Shown: positions 21,534 to 33,812 of the stretch, one piece after another
How positions within the stretch are numbered: the stretch's first letter is position 1
Layout: every line of letters starts with the position of its first letter
Source: Acholeplasmataceae bacterium
Lineage (GTDB): Bacteria > Bacillota_I > Bacilli_A > Acholeplasmatales > Acholeplasmataceae
Assembly (NCBI GenBank): GCA_034005105.1
Contig: JAVEVJ010000001.1
Location: forward strand, 5,954-69,953
Length of the DNA stretch: 64,000 bases
Direction of reading: 5' to 3'
Position numbers and translations under genes: made by a program
Notes under the pieces: model-generated
Databases searched by the model: none
The model's input: the letters and a program-made list of their open reading frames with translations, nothing else
Told to the model about the DNA's origin: nothing

Positions 21534-22103
21534 CTAACTTGAAGATGTAATCATCTTCAAGAAGTACTTGTGAACACTATGATCAGATGTGAGTTCTGGA
21601 TGAAATGATGTTGCTAACATATGATTTTGTCTTACGGCAACAATACGTTCGTTAACGGAGGATAAAACGATCACATCATGCCCTTTTTCTACAATGTAAG
21701 GTGCACGAATAAATGTCATTGGAATCATATGATGATTGAAGAGACTTTGTGTATGGAAAGAAGATAGTTGCCTACCATAACCATTTCTTGCAACAACCAT
21801 ATCCATCAAACCCAAATGGACTGTTGGATCTTGATAAAGTGATTTAGCGAGTAAAATCATACCAGCACATGTGCCTAAGGTTGGCAAACCTTGGGCTATT
21901 TTTTCTTTAAGCGTATCCAACATATCTAAATCTCTTAGAAGTTTTCCCATAGCAGTCGATTCACCACCAGGTAAAATAATCCCATCCATCGGTTGATCCA
22001 AATCTTCTTTTTTTCTGATTTCAAAAGATGAAACATGAAGTTGATTGAGTATATGCTCGTGTTCGATAAACGCTCCTTGAACAGCTAAGATGCCAATTGT
22101 CAT
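21534..22103 (-). CDS. pdxT: PLP synthase glutaminase subunit
   Basis: GILAVQGAF, PGGEST, GTCAGMI, FIRAP, FHPEL. Confidence 0.96.
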   Translation of the reverse strand: MTIGILAVQGAFIEHEHILNQLHVSSFEIRKKEDLDQPMDGIILPGGESTAMGKLLRDLDMLDTLKEKIAQGLPTLGTCAGMILLAKSLYQDPTVHLGLMDMVVARNGYGRQLSSFHTQSLFNHHMIPMTFIRAPYIVEKGHDVIVLSSVNERIVAVRQNHMLATSFHPELTSDHSVHKYFLKMITSSS

Positions 22104-22104
22104 A

Positions 22105-22983
22105 CTACTTTCCTCGTTCAGCCATCAAGAGTTCTATTTCTTGTTCATTGATACCGATCATCGCTTCACCCAAATCTTCAGATATGGACGCTAACAGTTT
22201 TGGGTCGTTATAATTGGTTACAGCTTTAACAATTGCTTCAGCACGTTTCTTAGGATTTCCTGACTTAAAAATACCCGATCCAACAAAAACACCTTCAGCA
22301 CCAAGTTGCATCATCAGTGCAGCATCCGCTGGTGTTGCCACACCTCCTGCAGCAAAATTAACAACAGGTAATTTAGCATGATCATGAACATATTTAATCA
22401 AGTCCATCGAGACACCTAAATCTTTTTGCAAAACATAGAGTTCCTCTTCACGCATGGAGTGAACGCGTCGAATCTCTTTTTGAATTTCACGCATGTGACG
22501 TACAGCTTGTATGATATCACCTGTACCGGGTTCACCTTTGGTGCGTATCATGGCAGCACCTTCTGAAATACGTCTTAGCGCTTCACCTAAATTTTTAGCA
22601 CCACAAACAAAGGGGACTTTGAATGATGTTTTATCGATATGGTGGATGTCATCCGCTGGTGATAAGACTTCACTCTCATCGATATAATCTATTTCGATCG
22701 CTTCAAGAATTTGAGCTTCAACAAAGTGTCCTATACGAACCTTAGCCATCACAGGTATCGATACAGCCTGTTGAATGTTTTTAATCATTAAAGGATCACT
22801 CATACGTGATACACCACCTGCTGCACGAATATCTGCAGGTATACGCTCAAGTGCCATGACTGCAACCGCACCAGCAGCTTCTGCAATCTTTGCTTGTTCG
22901 GGTGTGGAAACGTCCATAATGACGCCACCTTTAAGCATTTGAGCCAGTTCCTTGTTCAATTGATATCGTTCTTTGTCAATCAT
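22105..22983 (-). CDS. pdxS: PLP synthase subunit
   Basis: [42 protein letters not shown]; start at ATG 22983 after an AAGGA RBS. Confidence 0.97.
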
Positions 22984-23027
22984 ATTTACACATCCTTGTC
23001 TATTTTCTAATTTCATTGTATACTTGT

Positions 23028-23074
23028 AACTGGTATAAGAGAATAATCAGATTATGAAAAAATGAGCATACCAG
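23028..23074. promoter_or_regulatory. Candidate PdxR operator
   Basis: CTGGTAT (23030-36) is inverted to ATACCAG (23068-74), with an ATAATCAG variant between them, in the pdxS/pdxR divergent region. Confidence 0.5.
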
Positions 23075-23084
23075 ATGAGGTTTT

Positions 23085-24446
23085 ATGAAAAAACCCAAAT
23101 ATTTGGATATCTATGAACAATTTAAGAAAATGATTTTTCAAGGTTTGTATCAAGAAAACCAAAAATTACCTTCAAAAAGAAAACTTGCAGATAATTTAAA
23201 AGTGAGTCCTTTAACCGTCGAAGCAGCCTATATGCAATTGATTGCAGAAGGATATATTTATGCCATTGAAAAGCGTGGTTATTTTGTTGCTAAACGTGTT
23301 GAATTGATGATGGAACATGATGCGACTGAACACAGCTTTTCAAAACCCAAAGATAAAGAACAATATGCCTTTAATTTTGAAACCAATGTGGTTGATACCA
23401 CACTTTTTCCCAATGCTACATGGGCTAAACTTTCAAGAGAAGTGATTTCTGAAAATCATCATGAGATGCTCAATCAAACACCACCTCAAGGATTGCTAGA
23501 GCTGCGATTAGAGATAGCAAAATACTTAGAACTTTATCGCCAAATCAATATTCATCCTGAACAGATAATTATCGGTTCTGGATCGACTTCACTCATCAGT
23601 ATGCTCGTAGAGCTTTTGGGTAGACATCTTAACTATGCGGTTGAACAACCCGGTTATAAAAAAATCGAACAATTGCTCAAAGCACAGGATGTCAATCTCG
23701 ATTATGCAGCAATTGATAGGATGGGTTTATCGGTTGATCATCTAGTGAATAAAAAAATAGATGTCATCCATGTGACACCTTCACATCAGTTTCCAACAGG
23801 TATCGTCATGCCCATTTCAAGAAGAGCGGAATTACTTAACTGGGCCTTGGAACATCACGCTTATATCATCGAAGATGATTATGACAGCGAGTTTCGTTTT
23901 CAGGGAAAACCCATACCTGCACTGCAAGGTCTTGATCAAAACGATCGCGTCATCTACATGAATACATTTTCGAAGAGTCTTGCACCTAGTTTTCGAATCA
24001 GTTACATGGTGATACCCAGACACTTGTTATCACGCTATCATGAAATGTCTTCATATCATAGTTGTACGGTACCAACTTTTGAACAATACGTGCTCTACAA
24101 GTTTATGAATGGCGGCTATTTTGAAAGACATATCAATCGGATGCGCAATCACTATCGTGAAAAACTTGAAATGATTAGAGATCTCATGAGCTCTGAACCT
24201 TGGATCAAACTTCATGGTGATGAAGCAGGACTTCACTTTTTAATGGAACTTGAATATGGTTTAAATGAAGAAGAGATTGAAAAAAGACTTCATGAACATC
24301 ATCTTCACGCGGTTGTTCTAAATAAAAAATATAGACAATTACTCTACGAACATCCATGTCTAGTCATCGGTTACTCAGGTCTTCAAAAAGACGAAATCAA
24401 AAAAGCATTTAATTCACTTCTTCAATCTATTAAGCCATTAATTTGA
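23085..24446 (+). CDS. pdxR: MocR/GabR-family PLP-binding regulator (PdxR)
   Basis: GntR wHTH (KLPSKRKLA...VEAAYMQL), IIEDDYDSEF, TFSKSLAP with the PLP Lys; divergent from pdxST. Confidence 0.85.
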   Translation: MKKPKYLDIYEQFKKMIFQGLYQENQKLPSKRKLADNLKVSPLTVEAAYMQLIAEGYIYAIEKRGYFVAKRVELMMEHDATEHSFSKPKDKEQYAFNFETNVVDTTLFPNATWAKLSREVISENHHEMLNQTPPQGLLELRLEIAKYLELYRQINIHPEQIIIGSGSTSLISMLVELLGRHLNYAVEQPGYKKIEQLLKAQDVNLDYAAIDRMGLSVDHLVNKKIDVIHVTPSHQFPTGIVMPISRRAELLNWALEHHAYIIEDDYDSEFRFQGKPIPALQGLDQNDRVIYMNTFSKSLAPSFRISYMVIPRHLLSRYHEMSSYHSCTVPTFEQYVLYKFMNGGYFERHINRMRNHYREKLEMIRDLMSSEPWIKLHGDEAGLHFLMELEYGLNEEEIEKRLHEHHLHAVVLNKKYRQLLYEHPCLVIGYSGLQKDEIKKAFNSLLQSIKPLI

Positions 24447-24513
24447 ACTTTATCTCAACAAATGAGTCATATTCATATATAATAATAGTAAATGTATAAC
24501 ATTGGGAGATTAT

Positions 24514-26700
24514 ATGAAAAAATCAATTTGGATAACACTTTTCATTCTACTCGCTTTTTTGGGATCCATAGGTATCCAGTTTGCGATTAACATGCAGATC
24601 AAACCACTTCCTTCAAGACCCGAGGGAGACTATAATTCAGGAGGTGCTGATCGTCTGCTTTATTACATGTATCAAGAACAGTTAGGAACACCCGTTGAAG
24701 GAATTACCTTAACCGATTCATTTATCGATAGTGAACTTGAAGGAACATTTGATTATATCAATGGACGTTTTGATGTTGCTGATTTTAGAGTGAATGCACT
24801 GATTAGACTTTATCTTTCCTATCAAGATCAACTGAGTGAATCAACACAAAACGATATAAAAGATACACTTTTAAATTTTAAGTATTGGATGGATCAGGGT
24901 GGTGAAGACTCCATGTGTTTTTGGTCTGAAAATCATCAAATACTTTTCGCATCTGAAGAATATCTTGTCGGACAAACATTTCCAGATCACACGTTCACGG
25001 TTGATGGTAAAACGGGAAGCGAGCATATGGCAATGGCAAAAAAACGCATTGAGTCATGGCTCTATCAAAGATATACCTATGGTTTTACCGAATGGTATTC
25101 GAATAATTACTATCCTGAAGATATTGGACCTTTATCCAATCTGATCCAGTTTGCAGAAGATGAGGATCTTGTAAAAAAAGCAACGATCGTCATGGATCTC
25201 CTATGGTATGATATGGCATCGCAAAGTTTTAAATATGAAGGTATCGATTCATTAGGTGCACCAAGAACGTACTATATTTTTAATTCATCATCTGGAAGAA
25301 GTTATTCTGATAATCGCGCAAGCGATGATACAGGAAACCGTATGCGTCACTATATTGATTTTGTGATGCAACCTTTAGAAACTAAGAATCTAGAAAATGG
25401 ATGGGGAAGTTCATCGAATGGTTTCTTCAATGCATTTCGTCAAATGATGGAAGCTGAAGATACACTGGGTCAACCCTACTATGTGGTTCCAGAAGTCATC
25501 AAAGCTATCTTCGATGATTCGAGTGAAGAAAAGATCATTAAATCATCGCAATCACTTAATGTTGAAGAACTCGCTGAAGAGGGATTGCTCGGTCAAGAAG
25601 ATCATCAAATCATGATGCAGTGGGCGATGGAGGCATTTAGTAATCCTGAAGTCGTTACTAACACGATTAATTACATCAGCAAACACAAGATGTTTTCAAA
25701 TGAATTTTTAAATGATTTCAAACTCGTCAATCTATGGCCACTCAGAGCATTGAATCTTCTAGGTATGGTGAGCAGTACATTAAAGCCATCAACAAACGGT
25801 GTTGCGATTGAGCGTGCGAATGTCTATACCTACAAGACACATGATTTTATGATGTCAACCGCACAAGCTTATCAGATCGGTGAGTATGCTGATCAACATG
25901 CGATACATCAGTTTAATCTATCCAATGAAGTATCAGTATTTTCAACACAACCAGCTAAAATAGCAAGAAGAAGTGGTACACCTACTTACTGGGTAGGAAA
26001 CGGACGTCAGCCGATGAGTGTTCAAGAAAAAAATATCAACATAACGATCTATCAACCACCAACAAAAGCAGGTTTTATGGAACCGATGGTTGTCAAAGAA
26101 ACGACACATCTCTTTTTTCCAAAACAACTCTTTGATGAAGTTGATGAAACCTATTTAGATCAGGGTATGATCTTCGGTCGTGTAGGCCAAGCGATGATAG
26201 GGATACGTGCACGCTATGCCTTATCTTTCGTACCTTTTGATGTATCAAATGATTCAGACAATCAAGATGATATGCTCAAACGTGGTTCGGTTGGTCAGGT
26301 TTTATCAGAAGAATACGACTTAATACAAGAAGGTAAAGGGGATCACTTTTTTGTAACCGAAATGTCTTCAACAACTAAGGAATCCTTTGAAACATTTGTC
26401 AACCGTGTGCTATCCAATGGACTCAATTATTCAGAATCACTACACAGTGTGACCTATCAAACGATACCGTATTTAGAGACTGAAACAAAGAAAATCAGTG
26501 CTTTCATGGATGGCACATGGACGATAGATGAAGTTATTCAAGATACCGAATATGAACGTTTTGAATCACCTTATGTACAAAATCCTACGTTTTCTACGAT
26601 TTATCCAGTCATTTTTAGAAAACCAGATAACATTTACTTCGCTTTTGGTGGTCATTACTTATCCCTTCACTTTGAGCAGAAAGAAAGGGTGGTAGGATGA
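24514..26700 (+). CDS. Membrane-anchored uncharacterised carbohydrate-active-like protein (paralog of 28854..30695)
   Basis: N-terminal TM. Shares FKYWMD, FWSENHQI, EWxSNxYY, GVAIERAN and YWVGNG with the downstream paralog. Located in a GH105/GPH locus. Confidence 0.55.
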   Translation: MKKSIWITLFILLAFLGSIGIQFAINMQIKPLPSRPEGDYNSGGADRLLYYMYQEQLGTPVEGITLTDSFIDSELEGTFDYINGRFDVADFRVNALIRLYLSYQDQLSESTQNDIKDTLLNFKYWMDQGGEDSMCFWSENHQILFASEEYLVGQTFPDHTFTVDGKTGSEHMAMAKKRIESWLYQRYTYGFTEWYSNNYYPEDIGPLSNLIQFAEDEDLVKKATIVMDLLWYDMASQSFKYEGIDSLGAPRTYYIFNSSSGRSYSDNRASDDTGNRMRHYIDFVMQPLETKNLENGWGSSSNGFFNAFRQMMEAEDTLGQPYYVVPEVIKAIFDDSSEEKIIKSSQSLNVEELAEEGLLGQEDHQIMMQWAMEAFSNPEVVTNTINYISKHKMFSNEFLNDFKLVNLWPLRALNLLGMVSSTLKPSTNGVAIERANVYTYKTHDFMMSTAQAYQIGEYADQHAIHQFNLSNEVSVFSTQPAKIARRSGTPTYWVGNGRQPMSVQEKNINITIYQPPTKAGFMEPMVVKETTHLFFPKQLFDEVDETYLDQGMIFGRVGQAMIGIRARYALSFVPFDVSNDSDNQDDMLKRGSVGQVLSEEYDLIQEGKGDHFFVTEMSSTTKESFETFVNRVLSNGLNYSESLHSVTYQTIPYLETETKKISAFMDGTWTIDEVIQDTEYERFESPYVQNPTFSTIYPVIFRKPDNIYFAFGGHYLSLHFEQKERVVG

Positions 26701-27416
26701 GAACCTTTGGACTTCAGACCTATACTGTTAGAAAACTGATCAAAGAAGATCTTGATTTTACATTGCATGAACTAAAATCAATGAAACTGACCACGCTTGA
26801 ATGTGCACGCATGCCAATTGATCAAATGAGCATCAACAGTTTAAAAAAATATCGTATGAAGGTGATATCCCTTCAGTTGACTTTGAACAAAATCCAAAGA
26901 AAATACAATGAAATTCTCCACTTCTGCAAGGAAACAGGTAACAACAATGTGGTTATCTCGGTTCTTCCCATATGGGCACGAATTCCTTTGATTGGACCAC
27001 GTCTTTTCACATCAAAAGTCAATAAATTATCAAGTAAATATCAAAAAGAAGGTATACGCATCTGTTTTCACCATCATGCTTATGAAATGAAAAAAACACA
27101 GAAGAATTTCTATTTGGATCGTTATTTGAAAAACCTACATCCCCATGTGGGTCTGATCATCGATACCTATTGGATTACTTTAAGGGGACAAGATCCTCTT
27201 GACATCTACAAGCGTTATATTGACCGTGTACAAGGTATTCACTTAAGAGATTATCAAAAAAGTGGTCAAGACATTGAAATCGGTCAAGGAACAATCGATT
27301 TCAAAACATTCATACAAAAGCTCAATACAAACGTCTATACCGTTATAGAGCAAAATGCGAAAGATCCGTTGATCAGCATTCAACAAAGCCTTAACTATTT
27401 GGAGGAAAACATATGA
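26697..27416 (+). CDS. Sugar phosphate isomerase/epimerase (xylose-isomerase-like TIM barrel)
   Basis: GLQTYTVR, FHHHAYE, DTYW, IHLRD, GQGTIDF, IEQ. Confidence 0.8.
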   Translation: MRTFGLQTYTVRKLIKEDLDFTLHELKSMKLTTLECARMPIDQMSINSLKKYRMKVISLQLTLNKIQRKYNEILHFCKETGNNNVVISVLPIWARIPLIGPRLFTSKVNKLSSKYQKEGIRICFHHHAYEMKKTQKNFYLDRYLKNLHPHVGLIIDTYWITLRGQDPLDIYKRYIDRVQGIHLRDYQKSGQDIEIGQGTIDFKTFIQKLNTNVYTVIEQNAKDPLISIQQSLNYLEENI

Positions 27417-28843
27417 CAGAAAAACCTTTTAGCCAAAAAGAAAAATTAATTTTTGCTTGGGGAGATGTTTTTGGTGGTGGCTCACAAGCCATGATTGGTG
27501 TACTCTATCTTATTTTCTTAACAGATATCATCGGCATCAATCCCGCACTTGCAGCTACAGCTATCCTCATTTCTAAAGTATGGGATGCCATCAGTGATCC
27601 GCTCATGGGGGTCATTAGCGATAACACGAGAACACGCTTTGGTCGAAGACGTCCCTACATTTTCTTTGGTGGCATCTTTGTGATGGTCAGTTACTTACTC
27701 ATGTGGTTTCCAATGGGAAGTGGCATTGGCGAATTAACGAAAGCTATTTTTGCTGTATCGACTTACCTCTTTTATAGCACCATTGCTACGGTGGTGATGG
27801 TACCTTATAGTTCCCTTTCTGCTGAAATTACGACAGATACGAAACAAAGAAATAGTACCAATCTGATTCGATTGATCATCTCAACAGCAAGTTCTGCAAT
27901 CTGTACACTCGTTCCTACACTGATTTTAGAACAATTTAAAGCAGGAGCATTTGGAATCGATGTCTTCTATATTGTCGTAGGTATCGGCTTTGGTGTCTTC
28001 TTTGCCCTACCACTCCTTTTGATTGGATTGTTTACGAGAGAAAGAGGTATTCTACCTACTGAAAAATCAACATTTACGTTTAAGACATTTGCAAAACCAC
28101 TCAAAGTCAAAGCTTTTCGAGGATTGGTTTATATGTACCTTTGTCAAAGCATATCGATGGATATTCTATCGGCAGGGATCATCTTTTTTACAACCTACGT
28201 TTTGATCACAGGATCATCAACTGTCTTTTTAGGTATCTTTATCGGCATTCAACTTCTCTTATTTCCTTTAATCAATTATCTAGTCAACAAGATCGACAAA
28301 AAGAAGATCTATTACTATGGATTACCACTCGCAATCCTTTCCTTTTTAGCTGTCGGCCTTTATCCAAGTAACTGGCCAATTTTTGGAGCTTACGTCCTAA
28401 CAGCACTGACAGCCTTAGGATTTGCAGGAGCGCAACTGATGAGTTGGATCATCTTCCCAGATGCAGTTGATGCAGGAGAATTGATCTTAGGTGAAAGACC
28501 TACGGGATCTTTTAGTGGTGTGATGACATTCATACGTAAAACATCCTCTGCGATTGCTATTTGGATATTTGGTATCATGCTAGCTCTATCTGGTTATGTC
28601 AAACCCACCGATTTAAATCCCACGCCCATTCAACCCACATCAGCTGTTTGGGGAATCCGTCTTTCAATGACACTCAGTTTTGCTATTCTGATGACGATCG
28701 GTTATATCGTCAGTCGTCGGTTTGTGTTAACTAAAAAACTATCTGATGACATCAGTATCTTGCTTGAAAAACAAGAAAAACAAGAAACGCTCAATGATCA
28801 GGAAAGTTTAAGAAAAAAAGAGATCGAATCACTCATTCGATAA
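27413..28843 (+). CDS. GPH-family (MelB-like) glycoside/uronide:cation symporter
   Basis: WDAISDPLMG, DNTRTRFGRRRP, PYSSL; about 12 TM. Confidence 0.88.
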   Translation: MTEKPFSQKEKLIFAWGDVFGGGSQAMIGVLYLIFLTDIIGINPALAATAILISKVWDAISDPLMGVISDNTRTRFGRRRPYIFFGGIFVMVSYLLMWFPMGSGIGELTKAIFAVSTYLFYSTIATVVMVPYSSLSAEITTDTKQRNSTNLIRLIISTASSAICTLVPTLILEQFKAGAFGIDVFYIVVGIGFGVFFALPLLLIGLFTRERGILPTEKSTFTFKTFAKPLKVKAFRGLVYMYLCQSISMDILSAGIIFFTTYVLITGSSTVFLGIFIGIQLLLFPLINYLVNKIDKKKIYYYGLPLAILSFLAVGLYPSNWPIFGAYVLTALTALGFAGAQLMSWIIFPDAVDAGELILGERPTGSFSGVMTFIRKTSSAIAIWIFGIMLALSGYVKPTDLNPTPIQPTSAVWGIRLSMTLSFAILMTIGYIVSRRFVLTKKLSDDISILLEKQEKQETLNDQESLRKKEIESLIR

Positions 28844-28853
28844 GGAGGGACTT

Positions 28854-30695
28854 ATGGCTGTTTTAGAAGATGTCGGAATGAAGATCAAGATGAATGTTAA
28901 ATGTTTCAAAGAAATAGTCGAACTTGATCAAGGAAAGACCATTGATGAAACAGATTTACTCGAACTTGTTGACTTTGTAAATAAGCGCTATGACTGTGCT
29001 GATTTTAGAATGCTTGTTTTGATTAAGACATATCATGATTATCGTCATCTACTCAGTCAATCAACCGTAGAAGCTATCAGACAGGCCATCTTGAATTTTA
29101 AATATTGGATGGATGAACCGGGTGAAGATGGGATGTGTTTTTGGTCTGAAAATCACCAGATCATTTTTCATACCTGCGAATACCTAGCAGGTCAGATGTT
29201 TGAACAAGAAACGTTTACAAATGATCAACATTTAGGTATCTATCATATGGATAAAGCAGTCGTAAAAATCAAGCATTGGCTGAAAGACCGGTTTGAATAC
29301 GGTTTTATTGAATGGCACTCGAACACCTATTATGAAGAAGACATCGCTCCATTAATCCTATTGGTAGAACAGGCTAAAGATAAATCCATCGTTGTTCACG
29401 CCAAGATGATTTTAGATTTGCTCTTCCTCGATATGGCAGAGCATACCTTTGAAGGATATTTTACCGTAACATCTGGTCGGTGTTATGAAGCTCAAAAAAA
29501 ATCGGGAAGAGATGCAGATGTCAACGATCTGCTTAAACATGCGTTTGGTATACTGGATCACCCCTATAACTATGAGCGATTATCAACCCTTTTTCTCTTA
29601 ACAAAAGACTATCAAGTACCCGATGTTATTAAAACCATCGCGAGACTAGATGAAAAAGGATTAATCAAAGAATCAATGGGCTTAGATTTAAAAGAAGTTA
29701 AACATGAAATACAAGAAAAAACAAATGATCGACAGGGGATGTATTTTTGGGGAATGGAAGCCTTCACAAATCCGGAATCGATTCAAATGACGATGAAGAT
29801 GTATACCGATTGGAATCTAAAAGATAACAATTTTTTAAGGGATCTCAAGATGATCAGTCATCCTCTCTTAAGAAAATTACACCTCTTACCCCTACTCGTT
29901 CGTCTATTGAATCCAGCAACACGTGGAGTTGCTATTGAGAGAGCTAACAGTTATACGCTACACAAAAAAGATTACATGTTATCTTGTGCACAAACCTATC
30001 ATCCCAAAGCATTTGGGGATCAACAACATCTTTGGCATGCATCATTACCCAACGATGTTCAGATCTTTTCTACACACCCAGGCTCACCGATGTTTGATGA
30101 TCCAGCTCGCAACTTTTCACCATCCTACTGGGTAGGTAACGGGATCAATCCTCTTGCGTGTCAATATGAAAATCGTGTGTTTTTGATGTATAGATTAAAT
30201 CCAAGAAAAGGATTCCTAGAAAGAAAACGACAACGACTCGTTCACTTTTATATTCCCTTTTCAAAAATAGATGAAGTTATCTTAAATGAAAAGTCCATCC
30301 TACTTCGTGTTAAGGATACCTACGCCTCACTTGAGTTTTCAAAAACATATGAGAAAAAAGAAGATGAAATCATCATCCGAGGAAAGCACATACAAGCCAT
30401 CGTGACAATGGGATCAAAGAAAGATGATGAATCATTTGAACACTTTCAAGGAAAAATCATGCAAGAAGAACGAGTCTTATCACGTTTTGGTATCTATCTA
30501 GAAGATCAAAGACATACCTATCGTTTAAACTTTATTGATCGACTCATCGTCGATAAAAAGATCATTCCACTACAATATCATCGGTTCAATACACCTTATG
30601 TCCAAGCAGAAAGAAAGCCAAATGAAATCGAAGTTGTTTACAAGAAACAGGGACTAAAACATACATTTGATCTCTGTGAGAGGGAGGTTTGGTAA
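28854..30695 (+). CDS. Cytoplasmic uncharacterised carbohydrate-active-like protein (paralog of 24514..26700)
   Basis: No signal peptide or TM; same conserved motif blocks; AAGGAGG RBS. Confidence 0.55.
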   Translation: MAVLEDVGMKIKMNVKCFKEIVELDQGKTIDETDLLELVDFVNKRYDCADFRMLVLIKTYHDYRHLLSQSTVEAIRQAILNFKYWMDEPGEDGMCFWSENHQIIFHTCEYLAGQMFEQETFTNDQHLGIYHMDKAVVKIKHWLKDRFEYGFIEWHSNTYYEEDIAPLILLVEQAKDKSIVVHAKMILDLLFLDMAEHTFEGYFTVTSGRCYEAQKKSGRDADVNDLLKHAFGILDHPYNYERLSTLFLLTKDYQVPDVIKTIARLDEKGLIKESMGLDLKEVKHEIQEKTNDRQGMYFWGMEAFTNPESIQMTMKMYTDWNLKDNNFLRDLKMISHPLLRKLHLLPLLVRLLNPATRGVAIERANSYTLHKKDYMLSCAQTYHPKAFGDQQHLWHASLPNDVQIFSTHPGSPMFDDPARNFSPSYWVGNGINPLACQYENRVFLMYRLNPRKGFLERKRQRLVHFYIPFSKIDEVILNEKSILLRVKDTYASLEFSKTYEKKEDEIIIRGKHIQAIVTMGSKKDDESFEHFQGKIMQEERVLSRFGIYLEDQRHTYRLNFIDRLIVDKKIIPLQYHRFNTPYVQAERKPNEIEVVYKKQGLKHTFDLCEREVW

Positions 30696-30696
30696 G

Positions 30697-31752
30697 ATGG
30701 AAGTTATCAAAAAAATCATTGAAGTTGCTGATGACATCACACAAACATGGAATCCAAGAATGAAGTGGATGTGGGGGGAAGCGCTACTTGGATATGCGCT
30801 TTCACTTCTCGATGAGCACTTAAAAAGTGATCGCTATACCGATTTTCTTAAAGCATATTGTGATTACTATGTGGATCATCCACCTAGAGTAGATCAAAGC
30901 GACACATCAGCACCAGGTTTAATCACATACGCGATGTGGAAAAAAACGAACAATGAATCGTATAAAAAACTTACAGATCGCGTGATTCACTACATCATGA
31001 ACGAACCAAGATTGATTGAGGATTCGGTTAATCATTTGGGTAACTCACTTGAAGGTAAATTTTATCCCAAATCGATATGGGTGGATAGTTTGATGATGTT
31101 TTCTGTTTTTCCTGCACGCTATGCAAAAGAACAGCAGGACAAACATATGATGGATGTAGCAGCAAGACAACCACGAATCATGGCGAAATATATGCAAGAC
31201 CCCGAAGAAAAACTTTGGTATCACAGTTATTGGACAACGTGGAAAAAACACTACCCCAAAAACTTATTCTGGGGACGTGGTAACGGATGGGTTATTGCTT
31301 CTCTACCGATGATTTTAGAATCGGTTGAAAATCACGAAGAAAAAGAGACGATCACTAAGATCTTTCAAGAGACAGCTTTTGCACTACTTCCTTATCAAAG
31401 AGAGGATGGTGCTTTTGAAACCATCATCAATCGTCCAGGTAAGACCTATAGAGAATTATCTTTTACAGCATTGGTTGCTGCAGGATTTATTCACGGATAT
31501 CGTTTAAACATCTTGGATAAGACATATCTTGAAGCTGGCAAAAAAGCTTTAGATGCTGTATTAAATGCACTGATTGAAGAAGATGGACATATCTACATGC
31601 CAGAGATAAGTGGTCCGACGATACCACTACCAATTTTTCCATACCTAGGTTATAAATTAACGCCTAAAGGTAAAAATTGGTCCTATGGATTAGCAGCACT
31701 TATCTTTGCAGGAATTCAATATGATCTCTATGAAAAAGAAGCACAAAAATAA
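30697..31752 (+). CDS. Unsaturated uronyl hydrolase, GH105 (GH88-like fold)
   Basis: WMWGEA, IWVDSLMM, WYH, FWGRGNGW motifs; GGGAGG RBS before ATG 30697. Confidence 0.85.
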   Translation: MEVIKKIIEVADDITQTWNPRMKWMWGEALLGYALSLLDEHLKSDRYTDFLKAYCDYYVDHPPRVDQSDTSAPGLITYAMWKKTNNESYKKLTDRVIHYIMNEPRLIEDSVNHLGNSLEGKFYPKSIWVDSLMMFSVFPARYAKEQQDKHMMDVAARQPRIMAKYMQDPEEKLWYHSYWTTWKKHYPKNLFWGRGNGWVIASLPMILESVENHEEKETITKIFQETAFALLPYQREDGAFETIINRPGKTYRELSFTALVAAGFIHGYRLNILDKTYLEAGKKALDAVLNALIEEDGHIYMPEISGPTIPLPIFPYLGYKLTPKGKNWSYGLAALIFAGIQYDLYEKEAQK

Positions 31753-31772
31753 ATGCATTCTAAGAGGATGTT

Positions 31773-32690
31773 ATGAATGAGTTTCTTCAACAACCCAATT
31801 TAATCTTTCTTGTTGAGCATTTGGCTCTTCATTATGATTTGAAGACAATCGATCAAATTCTTTTAGGTATGACGTCTAAGCGAGTTGTTTCACTAAGAAT
31901 CAACACCTTAAAGACGACCAAAGAACATATTTTAAGCGTTCTTGATAGCAAACAAATCACCTATGAAAACATTTCTTGGTTTCATGATGGATTGATTGTT
32001 CACGCTAAAGAGATCGAGCTTGAATCCCTAGATATTTATCAGCAGGGTATGATTTACTTACAGAGTCTATCATCAATGATTCCACCGCTTATCATGGAAT
32101 TAAAGCCTTCGATTGATATTCTAGATATGGCTGCTGCTCCAGGTGGTAAAACGAGCGAAATAGCTCAACTGACAAACAACGAGAGTTTTATCACAGCGTG
32201 TGAAGCTAACCCAATTCGTGCAGAGAAGCTTAAATTTACGCTAGATCGTCAAGGGGTTAAAAAAACAACTGTTCTGATTAAAGATTCCACCCAATTAGAT
32301 GATTTTTTTCAGTTTGATCAGATATTACTGGATGCACCGTGTAGTGGGAGTGGAACGATTTTGTTGCACGATGTAAAAACGTATCAGTTTTTCACAAAAA
32401 AACTTATTGATAAATCAGTAGAAAAACAAAAAGCAATGCTAACAAAAGCAATTAAGTTACTCAAAAGAGGTGGAGAAATCGTCTATTCAACCTGTTCGAT
32501 ATTACCTGATGAAAATGAAGAGATCATTCGGTTTATTCTATCAAAAAAACAAGTAGAACTCATACCTATAGATAACAAACGATTTGAAGGACTTCCTTTA
32601 TTACCTTCAAATCTTAAGGGAACACTTTTGATCATGCCTTCAGCATCTTATGAGGGATTCTTTGTAGCCAAACTAAAGAAAATCAAATAA
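31773..32690 (+). CDS. NOL1/NOP2/Sun-family RNA m5C methyltransferase (RsmF-like)
   Basis: YLQSLSSMIP, LDMAAAPGGKT, LLDAPCSGSG, VYSTCS. Confidence 0.88.
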   Translation: MNEFLQQPNLIFLVEHLALHYDLKTIDQILLGMTSKRVVSLRINTLKTTKEHILSVLDSKQITYENISWFHDGLIVHAKEIELESLDIYQQGMIYLQSLSSMIPPLIMELKPSIDILDMAAAPGGKTSEIAQLTNNESFITACEANPIRAEKLKFTLDRQGVKKTTVLIKDSTQLDDFFQFDQILLDAPCSGSGTILLHDVKTYQFFTKKLIDKSVEKQKAMLTKAIKLLKRGGEIVYSTCSILPDENEEIIRFILSKKQVELIPIDNKRFEGLPLLPSNLKGTLLIMPSASYEGFFVAKLKKIK

Positions 32691-32719
32691 AAAAAGTGAT
32701 TCAACCGAATCACTTTTTT
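32690..32719. terminator. Bidirectional terminator
   Basis: AAAAAAGTGATT/AATCACTTTTTT 12-bp stem between convergent genes. Confidence 0.85.
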
Positions 32720-33812
32720 ACGCATTTTCAATGATGGCTGTAATGGGTACAAGCAAGAACGCTAACCACGAAATGTGGAAGAGTTGAAAGAAGTAACCAA
32801 TCGTAAAGAAGATAATCACAGCGATAAAGGGCATCAGTGCGGTCATTCTAAACCTATCAAAGAGGATGATGGCAGCAACAGGAATGAGCAAGAACACTTG
32901 CCAAGCCCAAGCCCAACCGTTTAAGGTAAAACCTAATACCAGAAAAATACCAGCGGCTAATACGACGAGTGATAACATCGTAATCGCTTTGGTTCGTTCG
33001 ACACCGGTTGGATAGCTCCATAAAAAACGAACATCACCAAGGATTAAACCCATCGCAAGTGGTAGAGCAAATCCGATAGCACCATATATCCATGATCCAT
33101 AGACATATCCCATGTAGAGATAAAAGGCAATCGCAACGATAAAGGATAATTCATAGACAATGACTTTTAAAACGCTTTTCTCATTGAGTATACCAAGCAT
33201 GGGGATGATTAAGAAAACTAACCAACCTGGATTCCATAACTGGTATTTAAATCCAAGAATAAGGAAAGCAAACAATGCAACAAATGGAGAAATAGCAACG
33301 GGTAATTCTTTTATTCGTGTATGCATGATAATAGCAACCACAGGAATCGATAGAAAGATTAGCCAACCCGGATGCCATAAATCAAAACCCCATCCTAATA
33401 TAAGAAAGATGATCACACTCAAAAAGGGCATTAAAGCAACAATTCCATCCTTAAGACGTGTCTGAAGTAGGATAGCAGACATTGGGATTGCAAGGAAAAC
33501 CAACCAACCCGGATGCCATAAATCTTGATAAAATCCTAATACAAAGAAAATGATTAAGCTAATAAACGGCATGACAGCGATGATTTTTGTCTTTATATTC
33601 TTTTCTTTTTTCTGCTGCAAGGTATCTCTTAACTCATGAGCAACCTCTTTAGGTGCTCCTAACATTTCACAAACCTCTTCGTCTGTTTTACCTGAAGCGA
33701 TTGCATCGTCATAGAGTTGAGCATAATCACTCAAAATCTCTTCGACATCTTTTTTACTTGCACCCATTTCCATGAGTACCTGTTTTAAACCATTTAAATA
33801 TTTAGCTTTCAT
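32718..33812 (-). CDS. DUF1700/HAAS-domain membrane protein with repeated 2-TM units
   Basis: N-terminal YLxxL...EEILSDY...GKTDEEVCEMLGAPKEVA; W[HN]PGWLxFLxIP repeats. Confidence 0.75.
   Translation of the reverse strand: MKAKYLNGLKQVLMEMGASKKDVEEILSDYAQLYDDAIASGKTDEEVCEMLGAPKEVAHELRDTLQQKKEKNIKTKIIAVMPFISLIIFFVLGFYQDLWHPGWLVFLAIPMSAILLQTRLKDGIVALMPFLSVIIFLILGWGFDLWHPGWLIFLSIPVVAIIMHTRIKELPVAISPFVALFAFLILGFKYQLWNPGWLVFLIIPMLGILNEKSVLKVIVYELSFIVAIAFYLYMGYVYGSWIYGAIGFALPLAMGLILGDVRFLWSYPTGVERTKAITMLSLVVLAAGIFLVLGFTLNGWAWAWQVFLLIPVAAIILFDRFRMTALMPFIAVIIFFTIGYFFQLFHISWLAFLLVPITAIIENA

Follow-up and report, generated by a model that had tools for sequence, protein, structure and literature searches.

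We analysed a window of 64,000 nucleotides (nt) from an Acholeplasmataceae bacterium (contig JAVEVJ010000001.1, positions 5,954 to 69,953 of the forward strand; unless another contig or locus is named, coordinates refer to this window). It carries an operon built around two related genes, here called open reading frames (ORF) A and B, which a preliminary description of the same DNA had proposed as an outside and inside pair belonging to a candidate new lyase family. Five genes are arranged head to tail on the plus strand in the order ORF A (24514-26700), a TIM-barrel protein (26697-27416), a GPH symporter (27413-28843), ORF B (28854-30695) and an enzyme of glycoside hydrolase (GH) family 105 (30697-31752), with overlaps of 4 nt at each of the first two junctions, a gap of 10 nt between the symporter and ORF B, and a gap of 1 nt between ORF B and GH105. 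The operon is preceded by a promoter-like site on the plus strand (TCAACA-17-TATAAT, 24455-24483), a consensus match only, agreeing at 10 of 12 positions, which is the top-scoring sigma-70-like match within 22900-32900. On the 3' side of GH105, an RsmB-like methyltransferase gene (31773-32690) is followed by a terminator-like hairpin with a 13-bp stem (32690-32719), where the transcription unit likely terminates; the hairpin scored as a minus-strand pattern, and its role as terminator of the plus-strand operon is proposed because the stem is palindromic.

ORF A encodes a predicted exported or membrane-anchored protein of 728 residues. Its start was placed at the ATG at 24514, preceded by the ribosome-binding site GGGAGA (24505-24510), the TTG at 24502 being merely the start assigned by the program that listed the ORFs. 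The N-terminus of the product, MKKSIWITLFILLAFLGSIGIQFAINM, is basic and then hydrophobic, and residues 1-27 (24514-24594) form the putative anchor. ORF B, with the ribosome-binding site AAGGAGGG immediately 5', encodes a predicted cytoplasmic paralog of 613 residues that has no hydrophobic N-terminus (the maximum of the Kyte-Doolittle 15-mer profile is 2.55 in A and 0.65 in B), in agreement with the earlier statement that one copy is anchored and the other is not. The two proteins are paralogs, as had been proposed by eye: over the 663 columns of their BLASTP alignment (320 bits, E 2e-104), 33% of positions are identical and 48% are positives. All eight motif blocks previously listed were recovered in both proteins with regular expressions, namely RFDVADFR (A 85-92) or RYDCADFR (B 45-52), NFKYWMD..GED.MCFWSENHQI.F...EYL.GQ (A 121-154, B 81-114), GF.EW.SN.YY.EDI.PL (A 190-207, B 150-167), and the shorter SGR.Y, W.MEAF.NPE, GVAIERAN.YT, [VI]FST.P and P.YWVGNG..P.

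The three remaining genes of the operon have recognizable relatives. The xylose-isomerase-like TIM-barrel protein (239 residues) matches PF01261 (E 1.7e-12, 48 bits), and its nearest PDB chains are 8tcs and 8tcd (2e-13) and 8bvk (3.8e-12); the last of these is cited in a paper on an Agrobacterium O-glycoside beta-eliminase (OGE; PMC10628242), which the predicted protein resembles at the fold and family level only. The sugar:cation symporter of the GPH family (MFS_2; 476 residues) matches PF13347 (E 6e-65) and TIGR00792 gph (E 6.8e-64), and displays likeness to glucuronide as well as melibiose transporters. The predicted unsaturated uronyl hydrolase (351 residues), whose ribosome-binding site GGGAGG (30681-30686) sits within the 3' end of ORF B, matches PF07470 (E 4e-57, 194 bits) and the PDB chains 4wu0 and 1nc5 (YteR). 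Within the W-x-D-x-L-x-M block, its putative catalytic residue D130 (31084-31086) lies opposite D143 of YteR in the alignment, and the Pfam match together with this equivalent Asp assigns the predicted product to GH105. The best NCBIfam model for the same gene is NF051900, named beta-galactosidase BglB, at 141.7 bits, below its cut-off of 420.

Conversely, ORF A and ORF B are members of a large and unnamed family. Neither protein matches Pfam (E up to 0.1) or NCBIfam, and neither phmmer nor a profile of 37 sequences detected a PDB sequence at E up to 10; the family thus belongs to no polysaccharide lyase (PL) family with a solved structure, and the earlier view that no known family could be assigned is borne out. 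A search of the literature found no description of the family, all 958 homologs are labelled as hypothetical and none carries a Pfam domain, and the sole name given to a family member by any source is "hypothetical protein". An exhaustive HMMER scan of 1.84 billion cluster representatives retrieved 1,473 clusters (50% identity) at E<=1e-3 and 1,038 at E<=1e-10, and relatives were found in at least 578 genomes in a scan of one genome per species, a count that is a lower bound given the two strict peptide patterns used. The family spans Mollicutes, Clostridia, Spirochaetes, Chloroflexota and Actinomycetota.

The difference in topology between A and B extends to their homologs, since an N-terminal hydrophobic segment is present in 110 of 115 A-type sequences and in none of 118 B-type sequences, and the anchored proteins constitute a single clade (support 100). 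It follows that one old duplication gave rise to an exported and a cytoplasmic lineage. The two lineages are found together in Acholeplasmataceae, Izemoplasmatales and Peloplasma, and also in some of the Spirochaetes. A and B are the only family copies in the host, whose genome measures 1.4 Mb in 103 contigs. We therefore describe A and B as the predicted surface-anchored and cytoplasmic members, respectively, of a large family of putative two-domain enzymes.

Residue conservation was assessed on 133 family representatives at <=50% identity, with residue numbers taken from ORF B. Polar residues conserved in 90% or more of the sequences are D47, D50, E99, N100, H101, E153, S156, Y159, D188, R209, Y211, Q390, H464 and D473; among them, E99 reaches 99%, N100 92%, H101 96%, Y159 95%, R209 95%, Y211 90% and H464 93%. 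W142 is invariant and C95 is kept in 68%. The conservation of the Asn-His pair, anticipated from the two paralogs, thus holds across the family, and so does the Glu before it, but the larger W-S-E-N-H block does not, since its Trp is found in 70% and its Ser in 65% (Thr in 32%). Similarly, of the Tyr-Tyr pair the first residue, Y159, is a family feature while the second, Y160, is kept in 71% and replaced by Phe, Leu or Ile. A conserved His (H464) lies in the beta domain, and Y159 follows H101 by 58 residues, a distance similar to the His-to-Tyr spacing of approximately 54-56 residues in PL5, PL15, PL17, PL21 and dermatan-sulfate epimerase 1; the two features together are reminiscent of the His/Tyr/His arrangement in PL15, PL17, PL21 and the epimerase. 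N100, H101, Y159, R209, Y211 and H464 are candidate catalytic residues. The E-N-H and N-N-Y-Y motifs of ORF A are encoded at 24928-24936 and 25102-25113; in ORF B, E99-N100-H101 correspond to 29148-29156, Y159 to 29328-29330, R209 and Y211 to 29478-29486, and H464 to 30243-30245, all on the plus strand.

An AlphaFold (AF2) model of the whole chain, built with the 37-sequence alignment, has a predicted local distance difference test score (pLDDT) of 91.4 and a predicted template modelling score (pTM) of 0.93. The model is helical over residues 1-360, where seven long helices are accompanied by short ones, and residues 364-613 form a beta-sandwich. In a Foldseek comparison against the PDB, every one of the 13 best chains is a heparinase-II/III-type uronate lyase or dermatan-sulfate epimerase 1, so the fold class named in the preliminary description is indeed the best whole-chain match, albeit with weak scores (E 7e-5 to 1.6e-2, TM-score 0.19-0.37). 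They include dermatan-sulfate epimerase 1 (6hzn), the PL15 enzymes Atu3025 (3a0o) and exoHep (6ljl), PL12 heparinase III (4fnv, 5jmd), the PL35 GAGases (8khw, 8khv), a chondroitinase, and PL17 Alg17c (4ojz). The predicted model shows a lyase-like succession of two domains, a helical N-domain followed by a beta-sandwich C-domain, and it is probably the C-domain and the general arrangement of the chain that produce the whole-chain matches. A search of viral structures (BFVD) with the full model returned unnamed weak matches only.

The strongest evidence for the function of the family is its genomic context. We examined 80 related loci, 44 of which had at least 3 kb of flanking sequence on both sides. 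Within these 44, a GPH symporter is present in 42 (adjacent to the family gene in 40) and GH105 in 38 (directly adjacent in 33), while the TIM barrel occurs in 18 and a second paralog in 15. Fusions of the family domain with GH88/105 are found in both orders, with the hydrolase C-terminal in P0122, P0128 and P0210 and N-terminal in P0194 and P0205, and these fusions arose independently; minimal loci consist of a GPH gene and a family-GH105 fusion and nothing else. Across the 80 loci, the next commonest neighbours are KduD (11), KduI (9), IclR (9), KdgK (8) and Eda (6), so that the recurring metabolic neighbours are limited to the unsaturated-uronate genes KduI, KduD, KdgK and Eda. Cell-surface members bear modules of the SLH, PA14, tachylectin or esterase-like kind, which fits enzymes that act on polysaccharides. 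Unusual fusions within the family (P0208, P0127, P0256, P0236, P0259 and P0237) carry PI-PLC-C1 phospholipase-C-like, alpha/beta-hydrolase, tachylectin, PA14 or SLH modules. Taken together, the linkage to GPH, GH105 and Kdu genes, the fusions, and the conserved Asp of GH105 tie the family to the step that precedes GH105, namely the formation of 4,5-unsaturated uronate.

The host genome provides further indications on the substrate. It encodes a PL1 pectate-lyase lipoprotein (contig C45, 5866-7311; PDB 5gt5, E 1e-67), a pectinesterase of carbohydrate esterase family 8 (CE8; C51, 6018-6857), a cytoplasmic GH28 beside Eda (C100, 805-2346), a surface GH28-like lipoprotein with an F5/8 type C domain (C56, 720-3563), a second and more canonical GH88/105 (C26, 36334-37464), a GH4 of the NAD/Mn-dependent redox-elimination family split over two contig ends (C26, 1-1193, and C8, 3-416), UxaC (C36, 179-1573), and a cluster on contig C67 with the end of an Eda-like gene, KdgK, IclR, a TIM barrel, KduI and KduD (L023, 9065-13234). 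This toolkit marks the host, a small wall-less bacterium, as a pectin degrader with a small genome, and the most likely substrate class is a galacturonate-containing glycan. Genes specific for homogalacturonan are present in the host genome, though outside the operon. Rhamnogalacturonan-I was also considered as substrate, a proposal weakened by RhaA, which was not found in the 96%-complete genome. The TIM barrel of the kdu cluster (L023, 10682-11515) is a second xylose-isomerase-like protein with no PDB sequence match, and it is unrelated to the operon TIM barrel at the level of BLASTP (E 0.23), so the two are not counted as paralogs. An ORF for a 951-residue lipoprotein-like product (C56, 3638-6493), which contains masked bases (X in the translation), adjoins the GH28-like gene.

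On these grounds we infer, from genomic context and with roughly even confidence, that the family of A and B consists of new uronate beta-eliminases that feed GH105. In the pathway that we propose, A would cut, outside the cell, a glycan that contains uronate and is probably pectic, and the resulting oligosaccharides would be imported by the GPH symporter. In the cytoplasm, B would act exolytically, abstracting H5 beside the carboxylate and expelling the O4 substituent, which would leave a 4,5-unsaturated uronate at the non-reducing end; the translationally coupled GH105 would then hydrate and release the unsaturated residue. The product, 4-deoxy-5-hexosulose-uronate, would enter the route of KduI, KduD, KdgK and Eda, which is encoded elsewhere in the genome.

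Several observations weigh against this proposal. The fold similarity is weak, with a TM-score of at most 0.37, and the N-domain on its own (residues 1-362, pLDDT 86) has no PDB match at E <1: the best, to GH146, has E 1.1, and those to the PL35 chains have E 4-6 and TM-scores of 0.25-0.31. A heparinase-type toroid is therefore not demonstrated; of the architecture originally envisaged, the helical N-terminal half and beta-rich C-terminal half are supported by the model. Alignments of 37 and 133 family sequences, compared by hhalign with 11 Hepar_II_III_C-bearing proteins taken from related genomes, gave probabilities of <=0.15%. The candidate new lyase family is thus upheld in part, as a new family with a predicted lyase-like architecture. 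Carboxylates are numerous among the conserved residues (D47, D50, E99, E153 and D188), which would suit a glycoside hydrolase or a metal site equally well. The host has its own PL1, which could supply unsaturated ends, and hence GH105 can be accounted for in this host even without A and B; the argument that they must be its only source of unsaturated uronate is rejected. Further, one subclade (L061, L073-L075 and L079) has neither GH105 nor uronate genes, with the key residues E-N-H, Y159, R209, Y211 and H464 intact; in its loci GFO/IDH/MocA, GPH, the family gene, ThuA and GFO follow one another, with GH116 and DUF2961 nearby (e.g., L074, 4545-14520). Finally, the locus of Paenibacillus sp. 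HB172176 (L063, 7330-15193) comprises an ABC transporter, AraC, a GH38 alpha-mannosidase, an alpha/beta-hydrolase and a sulfatase, and neither GH105 nor GPH, which hints at a different, possibly sulfated, substrate for this member.

The carboxylates lead to an alternative that we consider unlikely, in which the family would hydrolyse glycosides by Glu/Asp catalysis, with an N-domain resembling an (alpha/alpha)-barrel, and remove the sugar exposed after GH105 has acted. Unsaturated ends would then come from the host PL1, which can produce them, with A trimming the backbone or side chains of pectin extracellularly and B finishing the oligosaccharides inside. Besides the near-invariant E99, E153, D188, D47 and D50, this agrees with the best, non-significant, neighbours of the N-domain, which comprise (alpha/alpha)6 glycosidases and enzymes akin to them (GH146, GH9, GH76, GH94 and cellobiose 2-epimerase), and with the members found in neutral-sugar contexts with GH116, GH172-like or GH38 genes. 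On the other hand, all 13 best whole-chain matches are lyases or the epimerase, glycosidases appearing from rank 25 onwards with E >0.05; the minimal loci have no other source of unsaturated ends; and no metabolic genes other than KduI, KduD, KdgK and Eda recur in the neighbourhood. The single best fold match, dermatan-sulfate epimerase 1 (6hzn; E 7e-5, probability 1.0), could also suggest that the family are uronate C5-epimerases using lyase-like machinery as that enzyme does, but a catabolic operon, the GH105 fusions and the linkage to KduI and KduD speak against it, and an epimerase makes no substrate for GH105; we regard this reading as very improbable.

Two further explanations, both of which we hold to be quite improbable, retain an elimination step. 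In one, the cytoplasmic members would be oligosaccharide 4,5-dehydratases or eliminases of small leaving groups, converting a saturated non-reducing glucuronic acid, galacturonic acid or 4-O-methyl-glucuronic acid into the unsaturated residue for GH105 with loss of water or methanol. A dehydratase role coupled to GH105 has been published for P29_PDnc from the ulvan locus of Formosa agariphila (PMC8511951), the minimal loci of transporter and fusion would allow the use of saturated uronosyl oligosaccharides made by hydrolases, and one family member carries an alpha/beta-hydrolase (esterase-like) module. Yet the exported, SLH-anchored and lectin-bearing members point to polymer substrates, and the residues mutated in P29_PDnc (D248, E254, E255, D269, D290, R300, K303 and Y306) have no obvious counterpart in the family motifs. 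In the other, the family would catalyse elimination or hydration of activated sugars in general, by way of a conjugate base (E1cB) and with no specificity for uronates, and would serve both the unsaturated-uronate route (GH105, KduI and KduD) and a 3-keto-glycoside route (GFO/IDH/MocA, ThuA and OGE-like TIM barrels). The ThuA/GFO subclade keeps all key residues in the absence of GH105, an OGE-like TIM barrel accompanies the family gene in the 18 full-flank loci mentioned above, the host operon included, the corresponding operon of a Spirochaete is headed by HbpS-like and GFO/IDH/MocA genes, and GH4, a redox-elimination glycosidase, lies directly 3' of GH105 in the closest Acholeplasma-like relatives (L025, L027, L028 and L029; e.g., L025, 4256-5641). 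Nevertheless, GH105 is by far the dominant partner (38 of 44 loci), the ThuA link is confined to 5 of the 80 loci, which are closely related to one another, and the operon contains neither GFO nor ThuA; a tblastn search of the host genome with two GFO queries and one ThuA query from related loci found none. The ThuA/GFO subclade, the Paenibacillus locus, the OGE-like TIM barrel and the Spirochaete operon together indicate that the elimination chemistry of the family may exceed that of a uronate lyase. The stronger statement, that the family is a new catalytic scaffold on which E1cB elimination, or hydration as its reverse, takes place, used interchangeably with GH105 on the one route and with GFO/ThuA-type 3-dehydrogenases and OGE-like TIM barrels on the other, seems improbable to us; if true, such a scaffold would connect two ways of breaking down glycans without hydrolysis that so far have been treated separately.

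Under the uronate beta-eliminase proposal, the family is best compared with the heparinase-II/III-type lyases and dermatan-sulfate epimerase 1, its best whole-chain neighbours, with which its predicted model shares the order of a helical N-domain and a beta-sandwich C-domain. Further putative parallels are a conserved Asn-His pair, a conserved Tyr some 58 residues after it, a conserved His in the C-domain, and a catabolic setting with an unsaturated-uronate hydrolase. Unlike those lyases, the family lacks any Hepar_II_III or DUF4962 Pfam match, any PDB sequence or profile match and any hhalign signal, resembles them in fold at low TM-scores, has an N-domain without a significant neighbour of its own, and possesses additional invariant carboxylates. 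The rhiT-rhiN and togT systems of Dickeya and the YesR/YteR loci of Bacillus subtilis import unsaturated pectic oligosaccharides by GPH or ABC transporters and then process them by GH105. They resemble the operon in the GPH gene beside a cytoplasmic GH105, in the downstream KduI, KduD, KdgK and KdgA, and in the pectinolytic host, and differ in their use of PL1, PL4 or PL11 lyases where here two copies of an unnamed family would take the lyase positions, one outside the cell and one inside. P29_PDnc, presumably a PL37 enzyme, offers a parallel to the proposed role, since it makes the unsaturated uronate at the non-reducing end on which the GH105 encoded beside it depends; it belongs, in contrast, to an ulvan locus of a marine Bacteroidetes with sulfatases, and the residues mutated in it are different.

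Should the family prove to be a lyase, it would found a new polysaccharide lyase family in CAZy and fill a missing step in many GPH-GH105-KduID loci from anaerobic digesters, sediments and guts, and predictions of which organisms degrade pectin-like or other acidic glycans would change. Its members are now annotated as hypothetical and are invisible to both Pfam-based and structure-based annotation. With an outside and inside pair in a 1.4-Mb genome, and the same operon in a cultured relative, Peloplasma aerotolerans M4Ah (GCA_030012175.1, contig JASCXW010000008.1), the question lends itself directly to testing.

On the 5' side of the operon, pdxT (21534-22103) and pdxS (22105-23016) are divergent to a gene for a regulator with a GntR helix-turn-helix and an aminotransferase fold (MocR-type; 23085-24446). 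This gene was considered as a regulator of the operon, and probably is not one: it adjoins pdxS and pdxT divergently, in Peloplasma too, and therefore is more likely a PdxR-type regulator, the stretch 21534-24446 looking like a PdxR-pdxST module. The same pdxT, pdxS and GntR-aminotransferase arrangement is found in Peloplasma aerotolerans (L019).

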